A DNA stretch of 64,000 bases from Gammaproteobacteria bacterium (GCA_024644945.1 JAHEGU010000006.1:39143-103142), one strand, 5' to 3'. Numbered from the stretch's first letter, positions 4,940 through 26,615 are shown. Numbers and translations: made by a program. The notes: generated by a model from the sequence alone, not told the origin.

Positions 4940-5467
4940 TTGCGTCAATGCGTATCAGGATCTAATCTGAGTGCTTCACCCTCTGCGGTCATTCATCCGT
5001 TGACTCATTCACTGACCATACTTTCGGACGACCGATTCGGTCTCCCTCCAGCTCGTCATATTCCCGGAAGCGGCTCTGTGCCCTGTCTCGATTTTCTCAG
5101 GCCAATCAACGAGCGCTGCCCAACTAAGGTGGAATCTGAAAATTGGTGCGATAACGTCGCTTACCGATACGGATGGTTCTTGTTCCTTAACGCATACTAC
5201 TGGGAGTCCCACGAAATATGGGAAACGGTGTGGATGCGGTGCGCAGTTAACAGTAGAGAAAGGTTTCTGTTAAAAGGATTAATTCAACTGGCGAACGCCA
5301 GACTAAAAACTGCACAAGGAAAATATAACGCCGCACAAAAAATTCTACTTCAAAGCCAAGAGGTGATCGAAGAAGCCTTTCGAGGGAGACCACAAGCTGA
5401 CTCAGGGACGATCATGGGGGTGAAACAATATGACCTGCTTGAGCTGAATCAGAATTACGCATTATAG
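4940..5467 (+). CDS. DUF309-like small protein (start uncertain)
   Basis: Core FLFLNAYYWESHEIWETVW resembles the DUF309 signature as I recall it. The TTG at 4940 has an SD-like AAGGA directly abutting it, so the true start may lie further downstream. Confidence 0.45.
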   Translation: MRQCVSGSNLSASPSAVIHPLTHSLTILSDDRFGLPPARHIPGSGSVPCLDFLRPINERCPTKVESENWCDNVAYRYGWFLFLNAYYWESHEIWETVWMRCAVNSRERFLLKGLIQLANARLKTAQGKYNAAQKILLQSQEVIEEAFRGRPQADSGTIMGVKQYDLLELNQNYAL

Positions 5468-5479
5468 TACATGTTTTAA

Positions 5480-5493
5480 TGCAGTCTTATGCA
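5480..5493 (+). promoter_or_regulatory. TGCA-N6-TGCA direct repeat, candidate BoxR/BzdR-type operator
   Basis: TGCA at 5480-5483 and 5490-5493 separated by gtctta, about 20 bp upstream of a candidate -35 and about 100 bp upstream of the boxC ATG. BzdR/BoxR operators are reported to contain TGCA repeats (recalled from the literature). Confidence 0.35.
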
Positions 5494-5512
5494 CTTTACA
5501 GCTGTTTCTGCG

Positions 5513-5541
5513 TTGAACAGACAGGGCTGTATAGCTATAAC
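5513..5541 (+). promoter_or_regulatory. candidate sigma70 promoter for boxCBA (TTGAAC-N17-TATAAC)
   Basis: -35 TTGAAC at 5513-5518, a 17-nt spacer, and -10 TATAAC at 5536-5541, about 55 nt upstream of the boxC ATG at 5596. Confidence 0.4.
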
Positions 5542-5595
5542 CATTTCTGCTTGTCTTCTAATAGCCGAGCCGCCCACAACCCACAACGACTAGCA

Positions 5596-7245
5596 ATGAT
5601 AGATTTTCAAACCGGTCCAGATCAATATCGACATTGGAAAATTAACTATGAGGGAGAGATTGCCCGGTTAATAATGGACGTTGATCAGAATGCCGGCTTG
5701 TTTGAGGGCTATGAGCTGAAGCTCAATTCCTACGATTTAGGAGTTGATATTGAGCTCTATGATGCGCTGCAAAGAATACGGTTCGAACATCCTGAAGTAC
5801 GCGTGGTTATCCTTGAGTCGGGAAAGGAAAATGTGTTCTGCGCCGGCGCTAATATACGCATGCTGGCTGGTGCGTCGCATGCGCACAAGGTCGGATTTTG
5901 CAAATTCACTAACGAAACTCGAAACTCGATCGAACAGGCCAGTGCGCAATCCGGCGTGCAATTTATTGCCCTGATCAATGGCGCCTGCGCGGGCGGAGGG
6001 TATGAACTGGCAATGGCGTGTGATTATCTGATACTTAATGACGATGGGAGTTCATCCGTAGCATTGCCAGAGGTGCCTCTACTCGCGGTGCTTCCGGGTA
6101 CTGGCGGATTGACACGCCTGACCGATAAGAGAAAGGTACGCCGAGATCGGGCTGACATTTTTTGTTCGGTTGAAGAAGGCGTTCGAGGCGCAAAAGCGGT
6201 AGATTGGCGACTGGTCGATGAGACCGCGCCACGCTCAAAGATTGCAGAGCTCGCAGTTGAACGGGCGCGCGAGCTGGCGGCACAATCTGATCGCCCCGAT
6301 AATGCTCAAGGCATTGCGCTCGGTCCACTCAGCCGACAAATTACTGATGATGCAATCACCTACTCCAGCGTAAGCGTAATCATCAACCGCCAGAAAGGAC
6401 TGGCGACAATAGAAATTGCAGCTCCAGCAATGCAGCCACCGGCCGATCCTGAAAAAATGCAGGGGCTGGGCGATCAATTCTGGCCACTGCGGGCCGCCAG
6501 GGAGTTGGACGATGCATTACTTCATTTGCGTACCAACGAAGAACAGATAGGTGTATTAGTGTTCACCACCAGCGGAGATCTGGATAGCGTAGTGGCGATG
6601 GATAACTTTCTCGAAGCCCATGCCGATCACTGGCTGGCACGAGAAATATTGTTGAACTGGTGTCGAGTGCTCAAGCGCATTGACCTGACCTCACGTTCTT
6701 TGGTGGCGCTGATTGAACCCGGCAGTTGCTTCGGTGGCACCCTTGCTGAAATCGCCTTTGCCTGTGATAGAAACTTCATGGCGCTGGGGGAATTCGAAGA
6801 TGACCCGAGACCAGAAGCTAATCTGGCGCTTACCGCGGTTAATTTCGGTCGCTACCCGATGTCTAATGGGCTCAGTCGTCTGCAAACCCGCTTTCTCGGG
6901 GAACCCGAAACACTGGAGCTCGCTTGGTCAACCATCGGACAGTTCCTCGATGCAACGCAAGCCGAGAAGCTGGGGTTGGTGACAGCTAGTTTCGACGATA
7001 TTGACTGGGAAGATGAAATCAGAATATTCCTTGAGGAACGAATAAGCTTTTCTCCCGACGCGATGACTGGAATGGAAGCTAACCTGCGGTTTGCCGGCCC
7101 TGAAACCATGGAAACGCGAATCTTCGGTCGACTCACAGCGTGGCAGAACTGGATATTCCAGCGGCCTAATGCGGTAGGGGAAAACGGAGCACTTAGACGG
7201 TACGGAAGCGGCCAAAAAGCCGAGTTCAATCGCCAGCGAGTTTAG
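5596..7245 (+). CDS. boxC: BoxC, 2,3-epoxybenzoyl-CoA dihydrolase (benzoyl-CoA-dihydrodiol lyase)
   Basis: 549 aa from the ATG at 5596 (MIDFQTGPDQYRHWK...). Double crotonase-like architecture (VFCAGANIRML; second half TSGD...). Immediately upstream of boxB and boxA. The 39-codon upstream ORF extension looks non-protein-like and covers the candidate promoter. Confidence 0.85.
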   Translation: MIDFQTGPDQYRHWKINYEGEIARLIMDVDQNAGLFEGYELKLNSYDLGVDIELYDALQRIRFEHPEVRVVILESGKENVFCAGANIRMLAGASHAHKVGFCKFTNETRNSIEQASAQSGVQFIALINGACAGGGYELAMACDYLILNDDGSSSVALPEVPLLAVLPGTGGLTRLTDKRKVRRDRADIFCSVEEGVRGAKAVDWRLVDETAPRSKIAELAVERARELAAQSDRPDNAQGIALGPLSRQITDDAITYSSVSVIINRQKGLATIEIAAPAMQPPADPEKMQGLGDQFWPLRAARELDDALLHLRTNEEQIGVLVFTTSGDLDSVVAMDNFLEAHADHWLAREILLNWCRVLKRIDLTSRSLVALIEPGSCFGGTLAEIAFACDRNFMALGEFEDDPRPEANLALTAVNFGRYPMSNGLSRLQTRFLGEPETLELAWSTIGQFLDATQAEKLGLVTASFDDIDWEDEIRIFLEERISFSPDAMTGMEANLRFAGPETMETRIFGRLTAWQNWIFQRPNAVGENGALRRYGSGQKAEFNRQRV

Positions 7246-13053: not shown

Positions 13054-14154
13054 TTAACTGTAGCGATAAGGTACGCCGGCCTGTTCCATAACCGCTGTAT
13101 AGTCCTTGAAAATCTGCACTACCCGCGCAGCCCGGGGACTGATGGAAGCCAGTTCGTCCCAGAATTCTTCCGCGTCCTTGACCACGGTATCCCACTCTTC
13201 TGCAGGTATTTCAGTGAGCTCCATTTTCTTGCCTTCGACACGCAGCTTGGCCTCTCCACCCCAGTACCAGATCTGTCGGTAATAATGGGAACTGTCGATG
13301 GAAAGCTTGAATAGCTCCTGAAGATGGGGCGGTACCGCTTCCCAGCTCTTGGTGTTGGCAAAATAAGATCCACACCACGCACCGGTAACATTGTTGAGCA
13401 GAGCGTAGTTACAAACGTCAGCCCAGCCAACCTCATATGCCTCAGTAAAACCGCACCAGGCGACACCGTCAAGTTCACCGGTCTGAATTGCGACTTCGAT
13501 ATCGTCCCACGGTAGGGTGACCGGTACCAGGCCATAGCGAGATAGAAATCTACCTGCAGTGGGTACACCGAACACTCGCTTTCCTTTCATATCGGCAAGA
13601 CTGCGGATGGGGTCCTTGGTGAAAATGTGACACGGATCCCACGCCCCTGCACTGATCCATTCGACACCTTTGACCTCACCATAAGCTTCGGCCCAGATCT
13701 CATCCATGCCGTAATATTTAAAAAGAACCGGAAGATCGAGACTGTAGCGGGTTGAAAACGGGAAGTACCCACCAAATACGTTGATATCCACTGGCGATGC
13801 CATGGTGGCGTCATCACTCTGGACCGCATCGATCGTACCGTTTTGCATTGAGCGAAACAGTTCATCTGTGGGCACAAGTTGATCAGCGTAGTACAGTTCA
13901 ATTTCCATCTGGCCATGCGCTGCCTTGTTGAAGGCCTCGATCTGTGGTTTGATGACATGAGCGCCGAGCGGCGCACCGGAATAAGTCTGCAATCGCCACT
14001 TAATCGGATTGGACTGCGAAAATGCGTAGGGTGCGGTGGCCGCTGCGAGTGCGCCTGCGGTACCGGTGCTGGCCTTCTTAATGAAGTCGCGACGGCTGGT
14101 GGATTTAGTTTGTAGTAGTGGTTTACTGTCTTTATTTTTACTGTCTTTCATCAT
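13054..14154 (-). CDS. TRAP transporter substrate-binding protein (DctP type) with Tat signal
   Basis: 366 aa from the ATGATG at 14154, with AGAGGAG just upstream. Twin-arginine signal SRRDFIKKASTGTAGALAAATAPYAFS. DctP-like body. Confidence 0.85.
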   Translation of the reverse strand: MMKDSKNKDSKPLLQTKSTSRRDFIKKASTGTAGALAAATAPYAFSQSNPIKWRLQTYSGAPLGAHVIKPQIEAFNKAAHGQMEIELYYADQLVPTDELFRSMQNGTIDAVQSDDATMASPVDINVFGGYFPFSTRYSLDLPVLFKYYGMDEIWAEAYGEVKGVEWISAGAWDPCHIFTKDPIRSLADMKGKRVFGVPTAGRFLSRYGLVPVTLPWDDIEVAIQTGELDGVAWCGFTEAYEVGWADVCNYALLNNVTGAWCGSYFANTKSWEAVPPHLQELFKLSIDSSHYYRQIWYWGGEAKLRVEGKKMELTEIPAEEWDTVVKDAEEFWDELASISPRAARVVQIFKDYTAVMEQAGVPYRYS

Positions 14155-14188
14155 TTTCTCCTCTTTGGTTGGAAACATTGCGTATGGG

Positions 14189-15511
14189 TCACCGGGCATA
14201 AAACTGCTCTGGTAACCACATTGCAATTTGTGGGAACGCCATTACCAATATAAGTGCAAGCGTCATTACCATTACAAATGGAATAATCGAACGGTAAATA
14301 TCAGCCAGGCTGATCTCTTTAGGCGCCATGGCCCTCATGAGAAACAGATTGTATCCGAACGGTGGTGTCATGTAGGCAATCTGGCAGGTGATCGTATATA
14401 AAACGCCATACCATACCGGGTCAAATCCAAGTACTTTAACGAGCGGCACGTAGAGCGGTGCCACGATGACCAGCATTGCAGTGTCGTCGAGAAACATCCC
14501 CATAACCAGGTACGAGAGCTGCATCATAATCAACACTTCCCAAGGGGTCAGATCCCACTTAGTGATAAATAATGACTCGATCGCTCTGACCGCGCCGATG
14601 CCATCGAACACAGCACCAAAGCAAAGTGCCGCCAAAATTATCCACATGAACATGCAGGAAATACCCAAAGTCTTGCGCATGGTTTCCTCCATGACCTGCT
14701 TGGTCAAACGCCTTTTGGCAAGGGCCGCCAGGGTTGCGGCCGTGGCGCCTACTGCGGAACTCTCTACCAGACTAGTAATCCCCATGACGAACAAGCCGGT
14801 CATCGTGAAGAAAATCAGGAATGGAGTTATTCCGGCCCCGAGCAGTTTTAACTTCTCGACCATAGGCATTTTGAGCTCTTCCTCGCTCACTGTGGGCCCG
14901 AGGTGTGGTTGAATTCGACAGCGAATAACAATATAGATAATAAACATCGCCGCCATCATCAAACCCGGAACGGCGCCGGCTAGCCAAAGCTTGCCCACCG
15001 GTTGGCGAGCAATCATCCCGTATAACACCAGCACTACACTCGGCGGCACCAGAATACCGAGAGAACTCCCTGCCTGGACAACACCTGTGATCATCGTCTT
15101 GTCATAGCCCCGCCGCAACATCTCGGGCAGTGCAATAGTCGCACCAATCGCCATGCCAGCAACGCTCAGGCCGTTCATTGCCGAAATGACCACCATCAAT
15201 CCTATAGTACCAACCGCCAGACCGCCTTTAAGCCCGCCAAACCAGACATGAAACATCCGATATAGATCATCCGCAATACCCGATTCAGACAGGATGTAAC
15301 CCATGTATATAAACAATGGCAGGGTTAGCAGCGGATACCAATTAAACAGTTTAAACGCAGCATTGAACGGCATCTCTATAGCGCCCTGTCCATACAACAT
15401 CAACGCCGCCGCTGCGGATACAAAACCAATCGCTCCAAACACACGCTGACCGGTCAACAGCATCAGCAGCATCGATGAAAACATCAAGATCGCAATGGAC
15501 TCGTAGCTCAT
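14189..15511 (-). CDS. TRAP transporter large permease (DctM family)
   Basis: 440 aa polytopic membrane protein with typical DctM length and composition. ATGA overlap with the upstream dctQ-like gene. Confidence 0.9.
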   Translation of the reverse strand: MSYESIAILMFSSMLLMLLTGQRVFGAIGFVSAAAALMLYGQGAIEMPFNAAFKLFNWYPLLTLPLFIYMGYILSESGIADDLYRMFHVWFGGLKGGLAVGTIGLMVVISAMNGLSVAGMAIGATIALPEMLRRGYDKTMITGVVQAGSSLGILVPPSVVLVLYGMIARQPVGKLWLAGAVPGLMMAAMFIIYIVIRCRIQPHLGPTVSEEELKMPMVEKLKLLGAGITPFLIFFTMTGLFVMGITSLVESSAVGATAATLAALAKRRLTKQVMEETMRKTLGISCMFMWIILAALCFGAVFDGIGAVRAIESLFITKWDLTPWEVLIMMQLSYLVMGMFLDDTAMLVIVAPLYVPLVKVLGFDPVWYGVLYTITCQIAYMTPPFGYNLFLMRAMAPKEISLADIYRSIIPFVMVMTLALILVMAFPQIAMWLPEQFYAR

Positions 15512-16065
15512 TTGAAATCAATTCCCCTTGCTTTAGCGATGTCTTTGAATAACGTCGATATGGTTTGCAGCAACATCAGGATGATGCCGAAAACCATGAT
15601 GACCTTAATCGGGATCATCGAGGGATTCCACTGCGAAAACTTGCGCTGGTCATACTCAATCGCATAGATCGTACTTGAGATTGAACCTACCAGCAGACAC
15701 ACAAGGTAAAATATGAGGAACAGGGTTGTGAAACTGTCAATCCTGGCTTTGGTTCGATCAGAGCAATGATCGTAAACAAGATCCATACGCACGTGAGCGT
15801 TTAATTGCATCGAGTAAGCACCGCCCACTATGTAGTAGGCCGTCATCGTGAACTGTGCAAGCTCCACAGTCCAAGAGAGAGGTATATTGATAATATTTCT
15901 GGTAATTGCGCCCAAAAGAAGTGTTCCAATCATCAGAAATATGGAATACATCGCAAGTCGCCCGAATTTGGTTGATGCGTAGTCGACGTACTTGACATAA
16001 CTCACAATAAACTTCGGCATCTTATTCTTATTTTCCTCCGGTTTTTCTGGCATCGGTTCTTCCAT
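15508..16065 (-). CDS. TRAP transporter small permease (DctQ family)
   Basis: 185 aa with four predicted TM segments, translationally coupled to the large permease. Confidence 0.8.
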   Translation of the reverse strand: MEEPMPEKPEENKNKMPKFIVSYVKYVDYASTKFGRLAMYSIFLMIGTLLLGAITRNIINIPLSWTVELAQFTMTAYYIVGGAYSMQLNAHVRMDLVYDHCSDRTKARIDSFTTLFLIFYLVCLLVGSISSTIYAIEYDQRKFSQWNPSMIPIKVIMVFGIILMLLQTISTLFKDIAKARGIDFK

Positions 16066-16080
16066 TGCGACTATATCACT

Positions 16081-16431
16081 TCAACCGCGTCGAGTTGCAG
16101 CGCTTGCATTAATGCAGACCCGGGGTTGGGTATCGATAGTTATTGTTTGCTCTGGCGAGGCCATCGCCACGGCTTTTTTTGCAATCTCCCATTTAGCGGC
16201 AACATTGTCTCCAAGGCGCTGCGGCAAAGGACCTTTTCCCTCGGTTAAGGGTATAGTGGCTCCTGCGTGCATTTTCTTCACATTTTCCACATTCGCGAGG
16301 ACATTCAGATCACGCCTGATCGTCTCTGCGGAGGACTCAAACTTTGTGCACAGCTCCTCTACGCTCACCGTACCAACCTGTCGCACCAAGCCGGCTATCA
16401 TGGATTGTCTTTGTCTTAAACGCACAACCAA
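16081..16431 (-). pseudogene. truncated DeoR-family regulator (HTH domain only)
   Basis: RQ..I...V...GTVSVEELCTKFESSAETIRRDLNVL...HAGA is a DeoR N-terminal HTH. Similarity to the family ends at ..KAVAMASPEQTITIDT, where the sugar-phosphate sensor domain should begin. It is followed by an unrelated 15-aa tail and a stop 15 nt before dctQ. Confidence 0.6.
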
Positions 16432-16784: not shown

Positions 16785-17663
16785 TCATCCGAACTGACTT
16801 GTGAATTCACCATATACCCGCTCAAACCGCTGCTCATTACCCCGCGTATACGCCACGTAGTCAAAATCAATCTTGGAATAAATTTCAGAAACCATAGACC
16901 ACATCGTTTCCCGCAATAAAGACGCGCATTTCATCGCCGAGTATCGATACCAGAGTTGATCATCTACTGGATGCCCAAAGTACTGCTCCAGCATATTTTT
17001 CTCACTAGCCTCCACGAACTCACTATTCGATGCCAGGTTCGCCAGATCAAACAGTGGGCTATTGAATCCCGCATAGTCAAAATCGATCAACCAAATTCTT
17101 TCACCGTCATCAATAAAATTTGCGGGTAAAAGGTCATTGTGACCGAACACAAGAACTACTGACCCCACTGCTATCTCAAGGCGCTCGGCGATCGCCATCA
17201 GATCTGGCAATTGTTTGAGATATGAACTGCCCCCCTGTTCAAGCATATTGCGATAGTGTCGTAGCACCTGAAAGACCCAGAACAAAACCGGGTAACCATT
17301 AAATCTGTGAGGCATTTCACTATGAAACCGATGTACCAAATTAACTAGCCGCTGTTGATTAGTTGGGTCTCGAACGTCTTTTTCTGTAAAGACTTTGCCC
17401 TCGATAAAATCAATGACCAATACCCCAGGTTCACGATAGATTACTCTGGGCGAGAAACCGCAATCAGCCGCCACCTGGGAAGTTATGCCTTCGTTTTCAC
17501 GCCATACTAAATGCTCGGGCACGTCGTCCCCCAGTCTCACTACGAAATGCTTTTCATCCTCCTGCACCTTGAAATTAAGATTTGTCATGCCCCCACTCAA
17601 AGGCTCGACCGCCACTGGCTGCTGCCAGCAGGGCAGGTTTTTGATCTTCTCTATTTCTGCCAT
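16785..17663 (-). CDS. choline/ethanolamine kinase family (APH-fold) small-molecule kinase
   Basis: 292 aa. LSGGMTNLNFKV, Brenner motif HNDLLPANFI, and choline-kinase motif LIDFDYAGFNSPLFDLANL. Confidence 0.75.
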   Translation of the reverse strand: MAEIEKIKNLPCWQQPVAVEPLSGGMTNLNFKVQEDEKHFVVRLGDDVPEHLVWRENEGITSQVAADCGFSPRVIYREPGVLVIDFIEGKVFTEKDVRDPTNQQRLVNLVHRFHSEMPHRFNGYPVLFWVFQVLRHYRNMLEQGGSSYLKQLPDLMAIAERLEIAVGSVVLVFGHNDLLPANFIDDGERIWLIDFDYAGFNSPLFDLANLASNSEFVEASEKNMLEQYFGHPVDDQLWYRYSAMKCASLLRETMWSMVSEIYSKIDFDYVAYTRGNEQRFERVYGEFTSQFG

Positions 17664-17676
17664 CGACTACCCCTGT

Positions 17677-19887
17677 TTAATTCTGGACGGTTCTTTTTTG
17701 GTTTATCAACGCCAGCAATTCAGCTGCCGCTTCAGCATCACACATCGCTCTGTGATGCGACTCAAGACTAATTTCAAATCTTTCACACAAATTTTTGAGG
17801 CTGTAGGATTTGAACCCTGGATACCATTTACGCATCTGCGCACAGCTGCACAAGGTCGGCCGTTGATAGGTCTGTTGTAATCGTCGATATTCGTCCCCTA
17901 TAAAACTATAGTCAAATCGAACGTTATGGGCAACAAAAACCGCTCCCTCGGTGAACGCCCTGAAATCTTCTGCGATCTCGGCAAATACAGGTGCATCAGC
18001 AACCATTTTATTATTGATTCCTGTTAGATCAGTGATATTTCGCGGTATCGAGCGACACGGATTGATCAAGGACTGCCAACGGTCGATCACTTCACCATGC
18101 TGCAATTTCACAGCGGCGACCTCAGTAATTCGATTCGACGCTGACCGTCTCCCAGTGGTTTCAATGTCTACCACCACATAAATTTGTTCAGGATCAACCA
18201 CCCACTTAATTCGATTGACCTCTACCGGAAATCCTGCCTGCTCCATTGCCACAAATTGCTTCAGCTGGTTACGGCGAAGCTGGTCACCTTCAGCCTTTAT
18301 TTCAATGAAGCGTGCTCCCTTATGCTCAATCACCAGTAAGTCTGGAAAACCCGAGTGGTTGCCAGCGTAGTCCTGGGCCATGCGGCGAAGAATAACGGCT
18401 ACCGCACTTGAAGCGACGTTAGGAAGAAATGCGCGAATTTCGTCCATCATTTTGGAATTCCAACGGAAGATGCTGTTTGCAGTGCCGTACTCTCGAGTGA
18501 CGGTAGCAAGTATTGTCCGCATTGTAGCGTCGGTATCTTTTAGACCGGATAGAATTTTCTCGATCTTGGAATTAAATCGTGCATAGAATGCGCCGGTTTC
18601 TAAATTTTTCGGACGTTTTTCAAAATCATTAAAGATCGCAGAAGCCTCATCGTTATAAAGTAATTCCCAAAACAGCAGGCCAAATAATTTCTTCCACAAT
18701 CTGTTTTCAGTATGAAACACCTGAGCGCCATAAGACCGAAAGTAGTCGGCAGCGCCTTGCTCGGGAGCATCGCGATGACATTCATCGAGATTGATGACTG
18801 CGCCACTACGCAAAATATCGGTAATCCGGCTGGTGCGTTTCTTGTGGAACTTGCGTTGGTAAAAATCTGTTGCAAAGAGCAGTTCTTCATCACATGACGG
18901 ATCGTCAATCATACGCTCCAATCGAGTGCGAACCTTGTCGCGCTCTCCACTTACATACATTAGCCGGGTCAGCCGTTCGCTTGCTGGCCAGCCATCGGAT
19001 CGCCGGTATATTCGAACTGCCAGCGCCTGGTTTCCGTATTTCTCCACTTGTTCCCCGAGCTGGTAGATAGCTTGCTGACGTAATAGACTCGATTGTTCTC
19101 CGATGGCATCTGGCCAGGTGATGATACTGTCTGCAATCGATTCATAGTCCTTAGGTTCTATAGACCGGACATCACTTAATTTTTGGCAATAGAACCAGGT
19201 GCTCATTGCGGAGTCTTTATCGTCAAAGCGAGGCTTGAACGTTTTCTTAAAACCAGAAGTTTTGACTACACCCAGGTCGCGCAAAGTGAATCGAGATAAA
19301 CCCGATTCAAACTTTCCAAAATATAGAAAGAGTAGATAACCGATCTGCTCACATCTCGTTTGCACCACATAGGGTTCCAGAGCTGGCGCCATGCACGGAT
19401 GCTTGAAACTCACATTGCCCTGGGCAAATTCGACCAGGGTCGACTTGGGCCAGCTACGACGGTAGCTACCTGGAGAACACTGGTGGCTGAGCACATCCAG
19501 TAGCGCATCACGTGTTATCAATTCGAACCAGTGTTTAAGATCATCCTGAGCCACCGATCTAGAAAAACCATATTCTCTCAATCGCGCCAATTGTGCCGGA
19601 ATGTCATCGATCTCAGGATACTTGAACCGTCGGCTGTCAAACAGGCGACCACGCCGATTCAGCATTCGAACATAGAGACATTGGGCATTGCCATTGAGAA
19701 GCCTAAAATCGTCTATGAAACTTGCATGAGTCGGCTCCAACACATGGGTATACCGGTCCTCAATCACCCCAAGAAATTCGTTGAAGTGATCAAGGTAATA
19801 TCGCACCGGCAACTCCGGTGTTGCTGGATTTTGGGAAGGTGGCAGAGTCACCCGGGCTGATTCTGGAAATGGCATCGCTGGCACCAC
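17677..19887 (-). CDS. FAN1-like VRR-NUC nuclease fused to a C-terminal DEDDh (DnaQ/epsilon-like) 3'-5' exonuclease
   Basis: 736 aa. FAN1-type N-terminus (VRYYLDHFNEFL..., LYVRMLNRRG). VRR-NUC core GFPDLLVIEHKGARFIEIKAEGDQLRRNQ. Then VVDIETTG (ExoI), AHNVRFDYSF (ExoII) and HHRAMCDAEA (ExoIII). The start is either the GTG at 19887 or the ATG at 19875. Confidence 0.8.
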   Translation of the reverse strand: MVPAMPFPESARVTLPPSQNPATPELPVRYYLDHFNEFLGVIEDRYTHVLEPTHASFIDDFRLLNGNAQCLYVRMLNRRGRLFDSRRFKYPEIDDIPAQLARLREYGFSRSVAQDDLKHWFELITRDALLDVLSHQCSPGSYRRSWPKSTLVEFAQGNVSFKHPCMAPALEPYVVQTRCEQIGYLLFLYFGKFESGLSRFTLRDLGVVKTSGFKKTFKPRFDDKDSAMSTWFYCQKLSDVRSIEPKDYESIADSIITWPDAIGEQSSLLRQQAIYQLGEQVEKYGNQALAVRIYRRSDGWPASERLTRLMYVSGERDKVRTRLERMIDDPSCDEELLFATDFYQRKFHKKRTSRITDILRSGAVINLDECHRDAPEQGAADYFRSYGAQVFHTENRLWKKLFGLLFWELLYNDEASAIFNDFEKRPKNLETGAFYARFNSKIEKILSGLKDTDATMRTILATVTREYGTANSIFRWNSKMMDEIRAFLPNVASSAVAVILRRMAQDYAGNHSGFPDLLVIEHKGARFIEIKAEGDQLRRNQLKQFVAMEQAGFPVEVNRIKWVVDPEQIYVVVDIETTGRRSASNRITEVAAVKLQHGEVIDRWQSLINPCRSIPRNITDLTGINNKMVADAPVFAEIAEDFRAFTEGAVFVAHNVRFDYSFIGDEYRRLQQTYQRPTLCSCAQMRKWYPGFKSYSLKNLCERFEISLESHHRAMCDAEAAAELLALINQKRTVQN

Positions 19888-19938
19888 TCCACGTCAATTG
19901 TTTTTGAGTTCTCAAAATAGAGAACAAATTGACCTATG

Positions 19939-20628
19939 TCAACCGTTTATTGACCAGTCCACAGGTTTCAGGCCATGCTGTTCCAGCCATTTATTACTCT
20001 TTGAGAAATGACCGCAGCCGAAGAATCCTCGATGCGCTGACAGCGGTGATGGATGCGGCGCCTTCAAAATCAAGTGTTTGTGCGGGTCTATGAAGTGGCC
20101 TTTCTTCTGCGCATAACTGCCCCAAAGCAGAAAAACAAGGCTGTCGCGCTGCTGGTCGAGGGCCTGAATGGCTCGGTCGGTGAATTGCTCCCAGCCCTTT
20201 CCCTGATGCGATCCTGCACGATTGCGTTCAACCGTGAGCGTAGCATTTAACAGTAATACACCCTGGGCGGCCCAACCTTGCAGACAACCGTTGGTCGGCC
20301 CGGAAATTCCAAGATCACTCCGAATCTCCTTAAAGATGTTCAGCAGCGATGGTGGAAATGGCACACCCGGAAGAACCGAAAAACAGAGCCCGTGCGCCTG
20401 TCCCGGCCCGTGATACGGATCTTGTCCCAGGATCACAACCTTCACCCGATGAAATGGTGTCGAGTTAAAAGCGTTGAACCAGTTATCGCTTGCAGGGTAA
20501 ATTATTTTGCGTTGAGATTTTTGTTGCTTCAGGAATGTTTTTAGCGACAACATATAAGGTTGCTGGAATTCATCCTCCAGCACCGCCAGCCATGAGGGCT
20601 CCAGTTCTATTGATCGATCAGTGTTCAA
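19939..20628 (-). CDS. ung: uracil-DNA glycosylase (family 1)
   Basis: 229 aa. [18 protein letters not shown] and [13 protein letters not shown] motifs. Apparent TTG start. Confidence 0.9.
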
Positions 20629-20921
20629 TATCGGATCAGGAAAAAATACAGACTACCTTAATTGTTGACCGTGTGCATTAGAAAAGGTTTGGATGTACAA
20701 AATCGCGCCTGCACAGCGTAACGATAGTGGAAGCAACACCCTCTCCGAAAACTATCCCAGGTGCCCGCTGCTGGCGAACACGAGCAACGACCACAACAAG
20801 GTAACAAGGATCGTAGACCCTGCTCTCCAAGATCCTCTGACTAACAATTTCTGTCTATCAGTGAAGCAGTTGTTATGGCCCCCACTAAAGCACGCTCCCG
20901 CGGCAAATTTGCCGATCAGGA

Positions 20922-21716
20922 TCAAGCCACATCATGGGCTGCCAGAAATTTACGAATATGTCGAGCAAGATTATCAGGTTGCTCCACCGAGGGCAGATGC
21001 CCAGCGGAGGCAATCCTTTCATACCATGAGCCCTGAATCAGTAGCGCAAGGGATTCCACTACCTCGGGAGGTGTAGCGCCGTCTTCTTCTCCGCATATAC
21101 ACAGAGACGGTAACTTAAGTCGCGCACTAGTCTCACTGAGGTCAGCATCCCTTATTGATGCACAGGTTGCTAAATATCCTGATGCGGATGTGTGGCTGAA
21201 CATGTTGCGATAACCGCGCAACTGGGCAATCTGATGTTCTCTAAAATGCGCCGAAAACCAGCGTTCCATAACCGAGTCGGCAATGCCGTCCAAACCATTG
21301 TCGCTGATCGCCTGCATCCTTTCGTTCCACATCTCCACAGTGCCAATTTTCTGAGCCGTATCACATAGCACCAGAGCCTGAACCCGCTCCGCCATGCGTG
21401 CTGCAAATCTTTGCGCAATCATTCCGCCGACGGACACCCCGCATAAAATTACGCGATCTATGCCCAGGTACTCCAGCAGCGCGATCAGGTCGTCGACATG
21501 ATCATCCATTGTATAAGGGCCTTCGGGCACATCCGACAAACCATGGCCACGCTTATCATATAACACTACCCTGTAATCGTTAACCAAATCCAATGCAACG
21601 TCCTGCCAAATCCTGAAGTCCGTTCCCAGAGCGTTGGCAAACACAATAGTGTGTTTGGAGGGATTACCTGCCACTCCGTAGTGGATGGTAACGTTATTTA
21701 CTTTAGCAAAACGCAT
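20922..21716 (-). CDS. alpha/beta hydrolase, 3-oxoadipate enol-lactonase (PcaD)-like
   Basis: 264 aa. The N-terminus (VTIHYGVAGNPSKHTIVFANALGTDFRIWQ) and GVSVGGMIAQ nucleophile elbow resemble PcaD-type lactonases/hydrolases. Confidence 0.65.
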   Translation of the reverse strand: MRFAKVNNVTIHYGVAGNPSKHTIVFANALGTDFRIWQDVALDLVNDYRVVLYDKRGHGLSDVPEGPYTMDDHVDDLIALLEYLGIDRVILCGVSVGGMIAQRFAARMAERVQALVLCDTAQKIGTVEMWNERMQAISDNGLDGIADSVMERWFSAHFREHQIAQLRGYRNMFSHTSASGYLATCASIRDADLSETSARLKLPSLCICGEEDGATPPEVVESLALLIQGSWYERIASAGHLPSVEQPDNLARHIRKFLAAHDVA

Positions 21717-21804: not shown

Positions 21805-22506
21805 TCAAATTCCAAGATACTTCGATTTCAATTCTGGTTGCGCCGCGAGCGCATTGGAATCTCCTTCCCATACTACGGTGCCTTTCGCAATAATGTAGTG
21901 TTTATCCGCTATTTTTGACAGATCATCAATATTCTTGTCGATCAGTAATATTGTCAGACCGGATTGTTTCAGCCGCTGCAACCGATTCCAAATTTCCTGT
22001 CGAATCAGTGGCGCCAGGCCTTCGGTAGCTTCATCCAGAATAAGCAGTCCGGGATTCAGCATCAGCGCACGCCCAATTGCCAGCATTTGTTGCTCGCCAC
22101 CCGAGAGCTGGTTGCCCATATTACCAAGTCTCGGTTTCAGAGTTGGAAAAAATTCCATCACCTTGTCGAGATCCCAGGAGTCGCTGGATTTTGAAAAATT
22201 TGCCGCGGTAGCAATCAAATTCTCTCGTACGCTTAGATTCGGGAAAATCTGACGTCCCTCGGGAACAAGCCCAATTCCCCGCTGGGCCACCACATGGGCC
22301 GGTTTTCCGCTAATATTCTCCCCGTTGAATCGGATTTCACCACTCTTCGGCGGTACCGTTCCCATTATCGAATTCACGGTGGTGGTCTTACCCATACCGT
22401 TACGACCGATCAATGTCGTCACCTTGCCCTGATCTAAAGTTAAAGTAATACCGAACAGCACCTGGATCGACCCGTAGAAGGTTTCTACATTGTGCAGCTC
22501 AAGCAT
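21805..22506 (-). CDS. ABC transporter ATP-binding protein (LivF type)
   Basis: 233 aa from the ATG at 22506, which overlaps the upstream gene by 8 nt (ATGCTTGA). Walker A GRNGMGKTT and signature LSGGEQQ. Confidence 0.9.
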   Translation of the reverse strand: MLELHNVETFYGSIQVLFGITLTLDQGKVTTLIGRNGMGKTTTVNSIMGTVPPKSGEIRFNGENISGKPAHVVAQRGIGLVPEGRQIFPNLSVRENLIATAANFSKSSDSWDLDKVMEFFPTLKPRLGNMGNQLSGGEQQMLAIGRALMLNPGLLILDEATEGLAPLIRQEIWNRLQRLKQSGLTILLIDKNIDDLSKIADKHYIIAKGTVVWEGDSNALAAQPELKSKYLGI

Positions 22507-23251
22507 GTTCCTCTCCCAAATAAGCCTGCTGCACATCTGAATTGTTGCGGATTTTTTCAACCGTATCTGTGGCGATAATATGGCCGTTAACCAGCACCGA
22601 TAGACTATCAGCTAAGGAGAAGACCGCGTCCATATCATGCTCAATCAATAGTATGGTTTTATCTCCCTTCAGCCTGCTCAGTATTTCCACCATACGAGCC
22701 GTTTCTTCCGAACCCATACCTGCCATTGGCTCATCCAACAGCAGCAGTTTGGGACCCATTGCCAGCGCCATGGCAACTTCCAGCTGACGTCTTTCACCGT
22801 GGGACACCTGGGCAGCAATCCGGTCGGCGCGATCGTCCAAACCGACTTCCACTAAACTTTTCATGGCGGCATCGATCATTTCACCGTCGCGCTTTACCGA
22901 CGCCCAGAAACGAAACGAGTGCCCCTCACTGCCTTGAACTGCCAGCATCACATTCTCCAGCAATGTCATCGGCATAATGACACTGGTGATCTGAAACGAC
23001 CGCGCCAGCCCTGCGCGGGCACGGCGGGCAGTTGAGTATCCAGTGATGTTCCGGCCTTCGAACTCTATTCGCCCACTAGTAGGTTTTAACTGACCTGAAA
23101 GCTGAGAGATCAAAGTCGTTTTTCCGGCACCATTGGGACCAATAACCGCGTGCACCTGACCTTGCTCCACGCTCAAATAGAGTCTGCTTGTGGCAATGAT
23201 CCCGCCGAAATTTTTATTCAGATCGGTGACCTCCAACAGCGGCTGATTCAC
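22499..23251 (-). CDS. ABC transporter ATP-binding protein (LivG type)
   Basis: 250 aa. Walker A GPNGAGKTT, and a LivG-like N-terminus LLEVTDLNKNFGG. Confidence 0.9.
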   Translation of the reverse strand: MNQPLLEVTDLNKNFGGIIATSRLYLSVEQGQVHAVIGPNGAGKTTLISQLSGQLKPTSGRIEFEGRNITGYSTARRARAGLARSFQITSVIMPMTLLENVMLAVQGSEGHSFRFWASVKRDGEMIDAAMKSLVEVGLDDRADRIAAQVSHGERRQLEVAMALAMGPKLLLLDEPMAGMGSEETARMVEILSRLKGDKTILLIEHDMDAVFSLADSLSVLVNGHIIATDTVEKIRNNSDVQQAYLGEEHA

Positions 23252-24210
23252 CCGCGCTCCTCCTCGCTATCGAATGCACTCAGCCATCCATGAATACCGC
23301 CTTTTCCAAACAGCACCAGGGCAATCAGCATCAGCCCAAATATCAGGTGCCAGTAGATCGTAATGCGGGACAGGAACTCTTCGAGAAATACAAATGCCGC
23401 GGTTCCCACCAGTGGACCGAAGAGCGTCCCTGCGCCGCCCATAACCACCATAAATATCAACTCACCGGAGCGAGTCCAGCCCATCATTTCCGGACTAATG
23501 AAACTGGTAAAGTTACCAAGCAGCATACCTGCTATGCCACAGATCACCCCGGAGATCACATAACAGCTGAGCCTATATCGATAAGTGCTATAACCGAGTG
23601 ACTGCATACGATCCTCGTTGAATCGTGAGCCAACGATTACCCGGCCAAAACGCGCATGCACCAGCCTATGAATGAAAAACAGCGTAATTAACAACACTGT
23701 AAAAATCCAGTAATACAGGGCCACCGGGCTATCCATACTAAGCCAGGTGGGGAACTCACTGCGCAGATAAATCACCAATCCGTCGTCCCCCCCATACTCT
23801 TCGAGACTGACAAAAGTGAAGTACACCATCTGACTAAATGCCAGCGTGATCATAATAAAGTAGACGCCCTTGGTACGCAGACATATCGCACCGGTCACCA
23901 GAGCGAAAAGGCCGCTGACCAGCACCGTTAGCCCGAGATGCAGCCAGCCATTGTAAAAATCATAGTAGGCAGGAATCCCAACACAGTATGCGCCGATACC
24001 TATATATGCTGCATGCCCCAGGCTGACCATACCTCCATAACCGAGAATAAGGTTGAGACTGAGCGCAGCGACCGCAAGAATCAGGCCCCGACTTAACAGA
24101 TCGAGATAAAACGGTTCATCGATTACGCTGAAAATCCAGGGTGCAATGGCGAGCAAGACCAGAAATCCGGTGTAAACAGTTGCGGAAACAGTTCTTGGCA
24201 GTATCCGCAT
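23248..24210 (-). CDS. branched-chain-amino-acid-type ABC permease (LivM type)
   Basis: 320 aa polytopic protein with ATGA overlap with the ATPase gene. Confidence 0.85.
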   Translation of the reverse strand: MRILPRTVSATVYTGFLVLLAIAPWIFSVIDEPFYLDLLSRGLILAVAALSLNLILGYGGMVSLGHAAYIGIGAYCVGIPAYYDFYNGWLHLGLTVLVSGLFALVTGAICLRTKGVYFIMITLAFSQMVYFTFVSLEEYGGDDGLVIYLRSEFPTWLSMDSPVALYYWIFTVLLITLFFIHRLVHARFGRVIVGSRFNEDRMQSLGYSTYRYRLSCYVISGVICGIAGMLLGNFTSFISPEMMGWTRSGELIFMVVMGGAGTLFGPLVGTAAFVFLEEFLSRITIYWHLIFGLMLIALVLFGKGGIHGWLSAFDSEEERG

Positions 24211-25133
24211 TACTTGCTGCCCGCGGGTGGAAACAATCCCTGGGGTCGGAATGCCAGCACCACTGCCATCAGGATATAGACCAGCATCGCCGAAAGTGCG
24301 GGAGCGGCAGTCTCCGCATACTTTGTCGGCATTGACAACTCGAGCACATCATCGAGATAGGATCGGCCGAGGGTATCCATTAATCCAATGATAAGTGCAG
24401 CGTAGAAGGCGCCCTTTATCGAGCCAATACCACCCACAATCACGACTACGAATGCAATGATGATAATTTCATTGCCCATGCCTATGCTGGCCTCGGTTAT
24501 TGGCGCGATCAACATCCCGGCAAAACCTGACATCGTGGCGCCGATCGCAAACACAATCAAAAAAAGTTTGTTGATGTTTACACCAAGTGCTTCCACCATG
24601 GTGCGGTTGGATGCCCCTGCTCTGATCAGCATACCGAGGCGTGTTTTCGAGACCATGATATAGAGAATGGCAGCAACCAGCAGTCCGCTCATAATGATTA
24701 CCAGCCGATATGTTGGTAACACAAGAGTGCCCAGACTGACCTGCCCGTTTAGTACTTCCGGCAACGGTATTGCCATCCCTGCCGCTCCCCAAACCATGTG
24801 GACCAGGGTATCAAAAACCAGAATCAGGCCAAATGTCACCAGCACATGATCAAGATGATCGCTGCGATATAACCTCCTTGCAATGAACCACTCCACCGCC
24901 GCACCGATGGCAAATGTGCATATCAGCCCGACTACAATTCCAGACAGCAGTGAGCCCGACATCGATACCACAGTGCCGCAAAAGTAGGCGCCGATCATGT
25001 AAAACGATCCGTGGGACAGATTGATGAAATCCATGATCCCGAATATCAGGGTCAGCCCGGAAGCGAGCAGAAACAGAAGCAGGCCAAGCTGCAGGCCGTT
25101 CAGCACCTGAGTGATCAGCAGATTCCAGTCCAT
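24210..25133 (-). CDS. branched-chain-amino-acid-type ABC permease (LivH type)
   Basis: 307 aa. N-terminus QVLNGLQLGLLLFLLASGLTLIFG is typical of LivH. TAATG overlap with the next gene. Confidence 0.85.
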   Translation of the reverse strand: MDWNLLITQVLNGLQLGLLLFLLASGLTLIFGIMDFINLSHGSFYMIGAYFCGTVVSMSGSLLSGIVVGLICTFAIGAAVEWFIARRLYRSDHLDHVLVTFGLILVFDTLVHMVWGAAGMAIPLPEVLNGQVSLGTLVLPTYRLVIIMSGLLVAAILYIMVSKTRLGMLIRAGASNRTMVEALGVNINKLFLIVFAIGATMSGFAGMLIAPITEASIGMGNEIIIIAFVVVIVGGIGSIKGAFYAALIIGLMDTLGRSYLDDVLELSMPTKYAETAAPALSAMLVYILMAVVLAFRPQGLFPPAGSK

Positions 25134-25241
25134 TACTAGAAAGTATTATTAATCAGAGTAATCCAGGTATAAAGTAAAAGCGCGCCGCCACCGGCTTGCG
25201 GTGAGGGCGCGCTCCCTGGCCTTGATCAACCGATTGCTAAG

Positions 25242-26435
25242 CTATAGTGCGCACTCGGCAGCGTATGGATCCTGGTGATTCTCTAACACCGTGCTCACGA
25301 TCTTGGTAGTCCATCTACCCTGATCATCTTTTACCACCTCTCGCAGATAGAAGTTCTGGATCGGCATATGATTGTTACCATAAGTATACTTACCACGCAC
25401 CGAATCGTAGTCAGCTGCTTTCATCGCAGCTCGAAGTCCGTCCATGTCACCAAGATTTCCGTCCACTGCTTCTACCGCGCTCTTTATCAGCATTATAGAA
25501 TCATAAGCCTGCGCCGCATAGAAGGAAGGATAGCGATCATACTTAGCGAGGAAACCGTCGACAAATTTCTTATTCGCTGCGATATCCAGGTCAGGTGACC
25601 AGAACTGCGTCATCTTAGATCCCAATACACCTTCAAGACCACCCGCCTGCAATTTTGGCAATGCAATCGCATCAACTGTAAATACAGTATATAGCGGCAT
25701 AACACCCTGAAGCCCAGCCTGCTGATACTGCTTGATAAACGCACCACCCGCCTTGCCTGGATAAAAAATGAATATTCCCTCAGCGCCTGAAGCTTTAGCC
25801 TTAGCTAACTCGGCAGAAAAATCCAACTGAGCATCTGCGCCCCACTTGGTGAAATCCTTGCCGACCACATTACCTTTAAAAGTTTTTTCCACACCAGCGA
25901 CCATATCCTTCCCGGCAGCATAATTAGGCGCCATGATATACAGAGATTTGACACCCTGTTGCGAAAGATACTCACCCATCGCCATCGGCGTCTGGTCATT
26001 CTGCCATGAGGTTGAGAAAAAGTTTTCGTGACACAATTCACCAGCAATCTTGGATGGTCCAGCATTTGCGCTGATCAGAAACTTGCCAGCGTCCAGGGCT
26101 GATTTCATTGACGCAAGCAGCACATGTGACCAGATGTAGCCCACCACGAAATCCACATCATCCTGCTTCACAAGTTTGTCGGTTTTCTGTTTTCCGATAT
26201 CCGGTTTAAAACCGTCATCTTCCATGATCAGTTCCACATCAAGACTGCCCATCTTGTTGTCGATATGTTCGAGAGCCAGATTCACAGCATCCTGTATGTC
26301 GGCGCCGATGACACCTGCAGGCGTTGTGAGTGTGGTGACAAAACCGATTTTGACACTATCGGCCTGAGCCATACCGGCTCCAGCCATGGCGGTCGCCAAC
26401 AAAGCGCTGCCAACTAGTTTAGGGATTATTTTCAC
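25242..26435 (-). CDS. ABC substrate-binding protein (LivK/LivJ, periplasmic binding protein type I)
   Basis: 397 aa from the GTG at 26435, with GAGGAA 7 nt upstream. Signal peptide VKIIPKLVGSALLATAMAGAGMAQA, then DSVKIGFVTTLT typical of the family. Confidence 0.85.
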   Translation of the reverse strand: MKIIPKLVGSALLATAMAGAGMAQADSVKIGFVTTLTTPAGVIGADIQDAVNLALEHIDNKMGSLDVELIMEDDGFKPDIGKQKTDKLVKQDDVDFVVGYIWSHVLLASMKSALDAGKFLISANAGPSKIAGELCHENFFSTSWQNDQTPMAMGEYLSQQGVKSLYIMAPNYAAGKDMVAGVEKTFKGNVVGKDFTKWGADAQLDFSAELAKAKASGAEGIFIFYPGKAGGAFIKQYQQAGLQGVMPLYTVFTVDAIALPKLQAGGLEGVLGSKMTQFWSPDLDIAANKKFVDGFLAKYDRYPSFYAAQAYDSIMLIKSAVEAVDGNLGDMDGLRAAMKAADYDSVRGKYTYGNNHMPIQNFYLREVVKDDQGRWTTKIVSTVLENHQDPYAAECAL

Positions 26436-26615
26436 GTGAGAATTCCTCGCAGTACGTATGTAATAGATATATTGTTTTCTAATGAATTTGAGCAGGACCT
26501 TAACGAGGCGAGCAGATGCCTGCCTTCGGACCCGTTGATCATATATTAGCGTCTTTTGCCACGCTTTACACCTGTTCAGCTGACATACCGCCTGCAACCA
26601 GGCCCTATGCTCCTC

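Follow-up and report, generated by a model that had tools for sequence, protein, structure and literature searches.

The DNA analysed here is a 64,000-nucleotide stretch from a Gammaproteobacteria bacterium (the window). It carries a gene whose predicted product joins a homologue of the nuclease FAN1 to a DEDDh-type exonuclease on a single polypeptide. The gene lies between ung, which encodes a uracil-DNA glycosylase, and a gene for a kinase of the choline-kinase fold. Open reading frame (ORF) calls placed all three genes on the same strand, with gaps between the ORF ends of 51 nt for ung and the fusion and 13 nt for the fusion and the kinase, in agreement with the initial annotation of this locus. 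Positions are those of the whole window, residue numbers are those of the fusion protein, and the coordinates are collected in Table 1.

The start of the fusion ORF at GTG 19887 is the first in-frame start, but this codon overlaps the sole Shine-Dalgarno-like sequence, GGAG (19890-19887). ATG 19875 is situated 11 nt downstream of this GGAG and would yield a protein of 732 residues, which is the length of the 89%-identical orthologue P0001 and also that of the genes called on contigs with the identical sequence. For these reasons, the true start is probably ATG 19875, so that the protein would have 732 residues and ung would be 63 nt away. A protein identical to this 732-residue sequence is present at NCBI, and a mate in the same 90%-identity cluster is annotated as an 'exonuclease domain-containing protein' of an Arenicellales bacterium. 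The clade to which the window belongs, comprising fusions of at least 50% identity, is probably Arenicellales within the Gammaproteobacteria.

The N-terminal part of the protein was examined by domain assignment, alignment and structure prediction. Pfam assigned FAN1_HTH to residues 30-108 (1.7e-20, 73.1 bits against a cut-off of 27) and VRR_NUC to residues 458-559 (1.7e-14, 54.3 bits against 23.8), and found no further domain in the fusion besides these and the exonuclease domain described below; a UBZ ubiquitin-binding zinc finger was absent. Residues 15-565 aligned end to end with the FAN1 of Pseudomonas aeruginosa (PaFAN1; phmmer, E 7e-34). An AlphaFold (AF2) model built from 28 homologues had a mean pLDDT of 90 and a pTM of 0.81, and its N-terminal part matched PaFAN1-DNA complexes with Foldseek TMt values of 0.80-0.82 over about 560 columns (0.82 and 563 columns for 5y7g). 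The first 21 residues are disordered in this model and the FAN1 core begins at about residue 25, as it does in PaFAN1. Site residues were mapped through the PaFAN1 alignment onto those listed in PMC4201288. This identified E394, D516 and E529 as metal ligands and K531 as the catalytic lysine of a PD...ExK site, with R74, R78, N395 and Q541 as DNA-contact residues. All of them were invariant in 28 sequences. In a larger set of 200 aligned fused homologues, which share 33-89% identity with the window protein, all were again invariant except R78, which was kept in 198. These results show that the N-terminal 565 residues correspond to a complete predicted FAN1, with N-terminal/SAP, TPR and VRR-NUC domains and with the two-metal PD-(D/E)XK site and DNA-contact arginines intact. 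The FAN1-type N-terminal region and complete VRR-NUC motif that had been proposed are thus confirmed, and extended to a full-length FAN1 homologue, by Pfam, alignment and fold.

The remaining part of the protein was analysed in the same manner. Pfam assigned RNase_T to residues 571-725 (2.2e-33, 116.5 bits against a cut-off of 24), and the dnaq-family domain model TIGR00573 scored 115.5 bits against a cut-off of 71.5. The ExoI (D574/E576), ExoII (H654..D659) and ExoIII (H712..D717) motifs are all present, and each of these six residues was kept in 200/200 fused homologues. The best NCBIfam matches to this domain were NF005906 (7.9e-51), dinG_rel (3.6e-46) and PolC (1.8e-44). For the long ORF as a whole NCBIfam gave DEDD, DinG, PolC and DnaQ matches at the domain level only, with full-length equivalog cut-offs missed by a wide margin. 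In the Protein Data Bank (PDB), the domain matched the PolC exonuclease 2p1j by sequence (2.7e-25). Residues 568-732 of the model superposed on the DinG exonuclease of Staphylococcus aureus with a root-mean-square deviation (rmsd) of 1.1 Å over 166 columns (Foldseek), and also on PolC and on the epsilon subunit of Escherichia coli (rmsd 1.6-2.0 Å). DEDDh domains of these three types digest DNA in the 3' to 5' direction. Motifs, domain models and predicted fold together show that the C-terminal 165 residues form an intact DEDDh 3'-5' exonuclease of the PolC/DinG/epsilon type, as the initial annotation had recognised from ExoI-III. The nearest relatives of this domain that lack FAN1 are Bacteroidota proteins from Saprospiraceae, Roseivirga, Pontibacter and others (L040-L080), with 44-52% identity over residues ~565-730; they may represent the donor lineage or a sister group of the fused domain.

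The pattern of conservation indicates that neither nuclease domain is degenerate. The possibility that one domain was catalytically dead, raised in the initial annotation, was examined by alignment, and the key residues of both sites proved invariant in the 200 homologues. The exonuclease domain is the best conserved part, with a median identity of 59% compared to 39% for the FAN1 part. As judged from this alignment, strict purifying selection acts on both sites. In 200/200 sequences, 11 residues separate D574 of ExoI from W562, where VRR-NUC ends, and this constancy points to two nuclease modules held in a fixed geometric relation. Since all key residues are invariant, the earlier suggestion that one enzyme would combine 5' and 3' end-processing is a reasonable one.

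Table 1 Predicted features of the fusion locus (positions in the 64,000-nt window).
Feature	Position	Strand	Basis or remark
Kinase ORF, 292 aa	16785-17663	(-)	
FAN1 + DEDDh exonuclease fusion ORF, 736 aa from GTG 19887	17677-19887	(-)	
DEDDh 3'-5' exonuclease domain, residues 568-732	17689-18186	(-)	RNase_T, TIGR00573, structure matches
FAN1 module, residues 15-565: N-terminal domain/SAP-like helix-turn-helix (HTH) + TPR + VRR-NUC	18193-19845	(-)	PaFAN1 alignment
VRR-NUC (PD-(D/E)XK) domain, residues 458-559, FPDLLVI...FIEIKAEGD	18211-18516	(-)	Pfam PF08774
Sigma-70-like promoter match, TTGACA-17-TATTTT, 10/12	19914-19942	(-)	Consensus scan; spans ung stop and ung-fusion gap
ung ORF, 229 aa	19939-20628	(-)	
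Terminator-like hairpin	20803-20824	(-)	Between upstream hydrolase gene and ung; weak match

We considered whether the C-terminal domain could be a proofreading subunit epsilon of DNA polymerase III or a module docking on the replisome, in which case FAN1 would be tethered to the replisome and the protein would not be bifunctional. The JGI database does name relatives 'DNA polymerase-3 subunit epsilon', and both the TIGR00573 score and the superposition on E. coli epsilon agree with such an assignment. However, the fusion reaches only 98.2 bits against the cut-off of 222.7 for the proteobacterial dnaQ equivalog (TIGR01406), and the nearest relatives of the domain are PolC, DinG and DEDD-fusion exonucleases. 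Moreover, the C-terminal segment of epsilon is what binds the alpha subunit, and the ~15-21 residues (median 21) that follow ExoIII in the fused proteins leave no room for it. The JGI label is a domain-level transfer, and we regard a role as epsilon or docking module as very improbable.

The distribution of the fusion was examined in sequence collections and genomes. A word-indexed search showed the three-domain architecture of the fusion in at least 120 clusters (90% identity), and the database names of these proteins, if any, are 'exonuclease domain-containing protein' or 'VRR-NUC domain-containing protein'. The FAN1 part alone was then used as a query against 1.84 billion representatives at 50% identity, resulting in 2160 matches at E≤1e-3 and 499 at E≤1e-30. 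The best 150 of these consisted of 96 with the exonuclease domain, 40 full-length stand-alone FAN1 proteins and 14 fragments; those ranked 1-99 were nearly all fused. A census of VRR_NUC fusions to RNase_T/DnaQ domains, as proposed in the initial annotation, therefore yields at least 96 clusters at 50% identity. Among species-representative genomes, 38 fused loci were detected, in at least 38 species of Alpha- and Gammaproteobacteria, Verrucomicrobiota and Bdellovibrionota. The hosts include Hellea, Neomegalonema, Bradyrhizobium, Woeseiaceae, Chromatiaceae, Allohahella, Alteromonas, Glaciecola, Paraglaciecola, Idiomarina and several cultured Pseudoalteromonas species, as well as Verrucomicrobiales, Bdellovibrio and Bacteriovoracaceae. 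Two of the loci are on contigs binned as 'uncultured archaeon' (L037) and 'Patescibacteria group' (L023), which are probably mis-binned.

A neighbour-joining tree of the FAN1 part, midpoint-rooted and without bootstrap support, grouped 87 of the 88 fused representatives in a single clade. This clade also took in five 'stand-alone' sequences, of which at least three are fused genes with a visible truncation or frameshift. Because nearly all fused proteins group together and most of these stand-alone sequences are broken fused genes, the fusion appears from this tree to have arisen essentially once and then spread. Several fused genes look split or frameshifted, as in L032 (6001-8011) and L037 (6001-8111), with two ORFs each, while protein P0265 ends just past ExoI and P0299 ends at the junction. 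These may be pseudogenes or assembly errors. No description of a FAN1-exonuclease fusion was found by full-text literature searches, whose coverage of subscription journals is partial, so that absence is not proof. The fusion is thus a FAN1 variant already in databases under generic names, for which we found no description in the literature.

The patchy occurrence of the fusion across distant phyla raises the possibility that it is an accessory nuclease of genetic conflict rather than a housekeeping repair enzyme. It might then be an effector directed against phages or plasmids, or a toxin similar to VRR-Nuc effectors of the type VI secretion system. VRR-Nuc effectors have been described (PMC9635880), and full-length copies of the fusion are carried by Pseudoalteromonas second chromosomes (chromids) and by Bradyrhizobium megaplasmids, of which one is conjugative. 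The exonuclease domain also resembles the PADLOC candidate PDC-S48 and Cas-associated DEDDh proteins. However, the PADLOC matches cover the generic exonuclease domain only and no full-length defence model matched. No full-length copy was present in 50,697 phage records. The protein has no PAAR or secretion domain and no adjacent conserved immunity-like gene. Within the clade of the window the chromosomal position is stable across 50-89% identity. The neighbours of the fusion, also in Pseudoalteromonas xiamenensis and Bradyrhizobium japonicum, are metabolic genes. In addition, the whole FAN1 junction-recognition apparatus is kept, which suits structure-specific repair better than indiscriminate cleavage. 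We therefore consider a function in defence or conflict unlikely. An origin from defence systems or phages was rejected on the same PADLOC and phage results, the 'plasmid' matches being chromids and megaplasmids.

The initial annotation had suggested a dedicated module for lesion processing, made up of ung, fusion and kinase. In such an operon Ung would make abasic sites, the fusion would process the resulting nicks on both sides, and the kinase would phosphorylate a DNA end or a modified base. The translation of the upstream gene contains the GQDPYH and HPSPLS motifs, Pfam assigned UDG, and it passed the NCBIfam equivalogs NF003589 (354.2 bits against a cut-off of 223) and TIGR00628 (277.8 against 185.75). 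By these measures the encoded protein is a bona fide family-1 uracil-DNA glycosylase (Ung). The arrangement of the genes favours an operon, with one strand, gaps of 51-63 and 13 nt, and no terminator-like site detected by the scan between ung, fusion and kinase.

Conservation of this linkage was examined by tblastn searches with Ung, the kinase and the other neighbours from the window. The searches covered the 38 genome loci, each with 6-kb flanks, and were extended to 23 fused loci from metagenomes; all 61 are outside the clade of the window, with 34-46% identity. Among the 38 genome loci, ung was near the fusion once, in the unrelated locus L023, where it is divergently adjacent, and the kinase was never found. 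Neither gene was found at the 23 metagenome loci, so that outside the clade the totals are 1/61 for ung and 0/61 for the kinase. All-versus-all clustering of flanking ORFs from the 38 loci gave no family common to more than five of them, apart from antisense shadows of the fusion itself, and the annotated neighbours of the fusion in Pseudoalteromonas xiamenensis and Bradyrhizobium japonicum are unrelated. A conserved operon of the three genes was rejected on the basis of these searches and this clustering.

Inside the clade (50-89% identity; L081-L088) the picture is different. There ung was always upstream of the fusion (6/6 lineages examined), with gaps of 63 to 188 nt. The kinase followed the fusion in 4/6 lineages at a spacing of -8 to +38 nt, and was missing in L086 and L087, where ung and the fusion remain and the downstream TRAP transporter is absent as well. 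The synteny within the clade extends further, to a Liv-type ABC transporter, a PcaD-like hydrolase and the TRAP genes DctQMP. Since the wider gene order is conserved too, the adjacency of the trio is explained by descent, and it is, on the gene order available, inherited synteny of one gammaproteobacterial lineage, probably Arenicellales. Some gene flux was observed nearby. In L083, L086 and L087, genes for an aldo-keto reductase and a DUF6064 protein (~2.7-5.2 kb) separate ung from the PcaD-like hydrolase. These two genes are not in the window, and their insertion left the adjacency of ung and the fusion intact. In L087, the relative with 50% identity, a 310-aa gene without a Pfam match (4981-5913 (+)) is inserted between ung and the fusion.

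The kinase does not appear to act on nucleic acids, as had been suggested for a DNA end or a modified base. Pfam assigned Choline_kinase (PF01633; 8.8e-25, 88.1 bits against a cut-off of 29) and also APH, and the sequence has a Brenner-type catalytic loop (HNDLLPANF, for HxDxxxxN) and a metal-binding IDFDY motif. The substrate-specific equivalogs were not reached, with 66.8 bits against 299 for ThiK and 154.8 against 357 for GntI, and the nearest solved structures are choline/ethanolamine kinases (PDB 3dxq, 4r77). The gene has its own ribosome-binding site, GGGG. Its orthologues are very abundant, and those at 60-65% identity occur in nuclease-free contexts of metabolism and transport: in L091 downstream of genes for an OpuAC-type binding protein and an ABC permease, and in L093-95 ahead of a class-V aminotransferase gene. 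These contexts and the nearest structures led us to reject a nucleic-acid kinase; they argue for a small-molecule metabolic kinase that would be functionally independent of the fusion. The kinase and the TRAP transporter (DctQ/DctM/DctP; 13054-16065 (-) in the window) are both present in the window, L082 and L083 and both absent from L086 and L087. This co-occurrence, along with the OpuAC-type importer that precedes the kinase in L091, suggests an uptake-plus-phosphorylation pair for some small molecule.

Taken together, the compact gene order and the constancy of ung within the clade are what a lesion-processing operon would predict, and the separate case of L023 points the same way. Against it stand the near absence of both partners outside the clade, the loss of the kinase where ung and the fusion stay, the metabolic settings of the kinase orthologues, and a gap between ung and the fusion that varies in length and, in the window, contains a promoter-like site. 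We judge a dedicated operon to be an improbable explanation of the locus, and the proposed module was not supported.

Regulatory signals around the genes were examined by pattern scans. The promoter-like site ahead of the fusion is no more than a pattern match, in a region where the consensus scan found 15 sites and 9.1 were expected; it could be an independent promoter of the fusion gene. The terminator-like scan found 7 sites against 5.9 expected, and the hairpin upstream of ung may mark the upstream boundary of the transcription unit. A scan for E. coli-type LexA boxes (CTGT-N8-ACAG) found none upstream of ung or the fusion, and such sites in the window were fewer than chance predicts; SOS regulation of the two genes was rejected on this ground. 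Rfam gave no match to a structured RNA in the window. Upstream of ung, the gene at 20922-21716 (-) scores 320 bits with the NCBIfam equivalog for the 3-oxoadipate enol-lactonase PcaD, above the cut-off of 255.85. A Liv-type ABC transporter operon (21805-26597) precedes this gene, and other pca genes do not adjoin it. Downstream, between the kinase and the TRAP gene dctQ, is an ORF of 106-116 aa (16081-16431 (-)). Its sole domain is a DeoR-type HTH (PF08220, assigned on the identical contigs L089/L090), and its length is roughly half that of a normal DeoR regulator. The orthologous gap of L082 lacks this ORF, which may be the remnant of a truncated gene or else encode a stand-alone HTH protein that regulates the TRAP operon.

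We propose that the fusion is a solitary dual-polarity DNA-repair nuclease on a single polypeptide, an explanation that we hold to be probable, and that the proteins like it constitute a monophyletic, widely dispersed and so far uncharacterised subfamily of bacterial FAN1. What the alignments and the model show is two intact nuclease sites of opposite expected polarity on one polypeptide, with a complete FAN1 junction-recognition scaffold and a junction of invariant length. We regard the gene as a solitary chromosomal repair gene because no neighbour family is conserved and the neighbours in P. xiamenensis and B. japonicum are unrelated.

The biochemistry of PaFAN1 suggests how such an enzyme might operate. 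PaFAN1 binds junctions with a 5' flap, a nick or a gap and incises the 5' strand 4-5 nt inside the post-nick duplex, while the 3' end of the pre-nick strand remains exposed (PMC4201288; PMC4103454). By analogy, the FAN1 module of the fusion would dock at a nick, gap or 5' flap junction, and its site would incise the 5' strand within the duplex, a few nucleotides in, and digest it 5' to 3'. The tethered DEDDh domain would trim the opposing 3' end, be it a 3' flap or a mismatched, damaged or blocked terminus; alternatively, it might degrade the released single strand or oligonucleotide. A branched or blocked junction would be converted in this way to a clean gap for repair synthesis. Crosslinks, stalled forks and strand-displacement intermediates are candidate substrates. 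The initial annotation had described bacterial FAN1 homologues as enzymes for crosslink repair. That description is established only in part: PaFAN1 is a 5' flap endonuclease in vitro, but the in vivo tests of the same study used S. pombe (PMC4201288). As a more specific version of this proposal, the rigid junction of invariant length might place the DEDDh site such that both sites work at once on the same nick or flap junction, the 5' strand being processed by FAN1 and the 3' strand by the exonuclease. We put this forward tentatively and consider it rather doubtful. In the Arenicellales lineage, the dual-end nuclease could additionally be coupled to base excision repair initiated by Ung.

Several observations weigh against a solitary repair nuclease. 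The proposed cooperation of both active sites at a single junction is something that we infer. The scattered occurrence across phyla and the conjugative megaplasmid copy would fit an accessory role as well. Within the Arenicellales-like clade, the adjacency of ung and the fusion has survived down to 50% identity despite insertions nearby, and it was seen independently in L023. In a rough estimate of chance, ung would be adjacent in ~0.05% of loci per genome, so that ~0.03 cases are expected across 61. L023 is nonetheless a single event and does not establish a module; a weak functional link of the fusion to the processing of uracil or apurinic/apyrimidinic sites is conceivable. The kinase is probably co-transcribed with the fusion, as judged from their tight spacing wherever it is present. 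Finally, a possible sign of damage-inducible regulation, an upstream LexA box of the E. coli type, was looked for and not found.

FAN1 is linked to karyomegalic interstitial nephritis in humans and modifies the onset of Huntington's disease. To our knowledge, bacterial homologues of FAN1 are known almost solely through the crystal structures of PaFAN1. In the large bacterial subfamily described here, apparently of single origin, FAN1 is permanently linked to a 3'-5' exonuclease and both sites are conserved, which suggests that trimming with opposing polarity benefits the processing of junctions by FAN1-type nucleases, an activity that eukaryotes would need to supply in trans. If both ends were in fact processed at once, the fusion would represent a new class of bacterial repair nuclease for 'bidirectional gap-making', and crosslinks or fork junctions would be processed in bacteria without a eukaryote-style recruitment platform. 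The neighbouring ung and kinase genes add little to this significance because their association is lineage synteny. Carriers that are culturable and genetically tractable, such as Pseudoalteromonas and Bradyrhizobium, make the in vivo role of a bacterial FAN1 directly testable.

Among known systems, the kinase shares the APH/ChoK fold and both signature motifs with the LicA-type and other bacterial choline/ethanolamine kinases (4R77, 3DXQ). E. coli DnaQ (epsilon) shares the DEDDh fold and motifs with the fusion (PDB 1j53/2gui, E 1e-15), whereas its alpha-binding segment has no counterpart there. PolC, S. aureus DinG and the 'DEDD exonuclease domain-containing' fusions of the PRK07883 group are the best matches to residues 568-732. 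They are precedents for the fusion of such an exonuclease to another repair or replication module, although in their case the partner is a helicase-like, polymerase or other module and not FAN1.

Human FAN1 (PDB 4RI8, 4REA and others) shares the core fold of SAP, TPR and VRR-NUC domains (Foldseek E ~1e-20, TMt 0.64-0.72), and its VRR-NUC domain also matches the fusion by sequence (E ~1e-13). It differs in having an N-terminal UBZ, regions of interaction with PCNA and MLH1, and recruitment by FANCI-FANCD2, none of which is found in the fusion, and in having no fused exonuclease. The closest counterpart is PaFAN1 (PDB 4R89/4R8A/5Y7G), which has the same domain order over ~550 residues and likewise no UBZ. 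The two proteins are only ~23% identical. Even so, the active-site residues of PaFAN1 reported by Gwon et al. 2014 (PMC4201288) correspond to identical residues in the fusion: the metal ligands E386, D507 and E522 and the lysine K524 to E394, D516, E529 and K531; the phosphate contacts N387 and Q534 to N395 and Q541; and R65 and R69 of the N-terminal domain to R74 and R78. In the neighbour-joining tree the fused proteins make up a clade of their own. While PaFAN1 stops right after VRR-NUC, the fusion continues through a junction of invariant length into the 165-residue DEDDh exonuclease.

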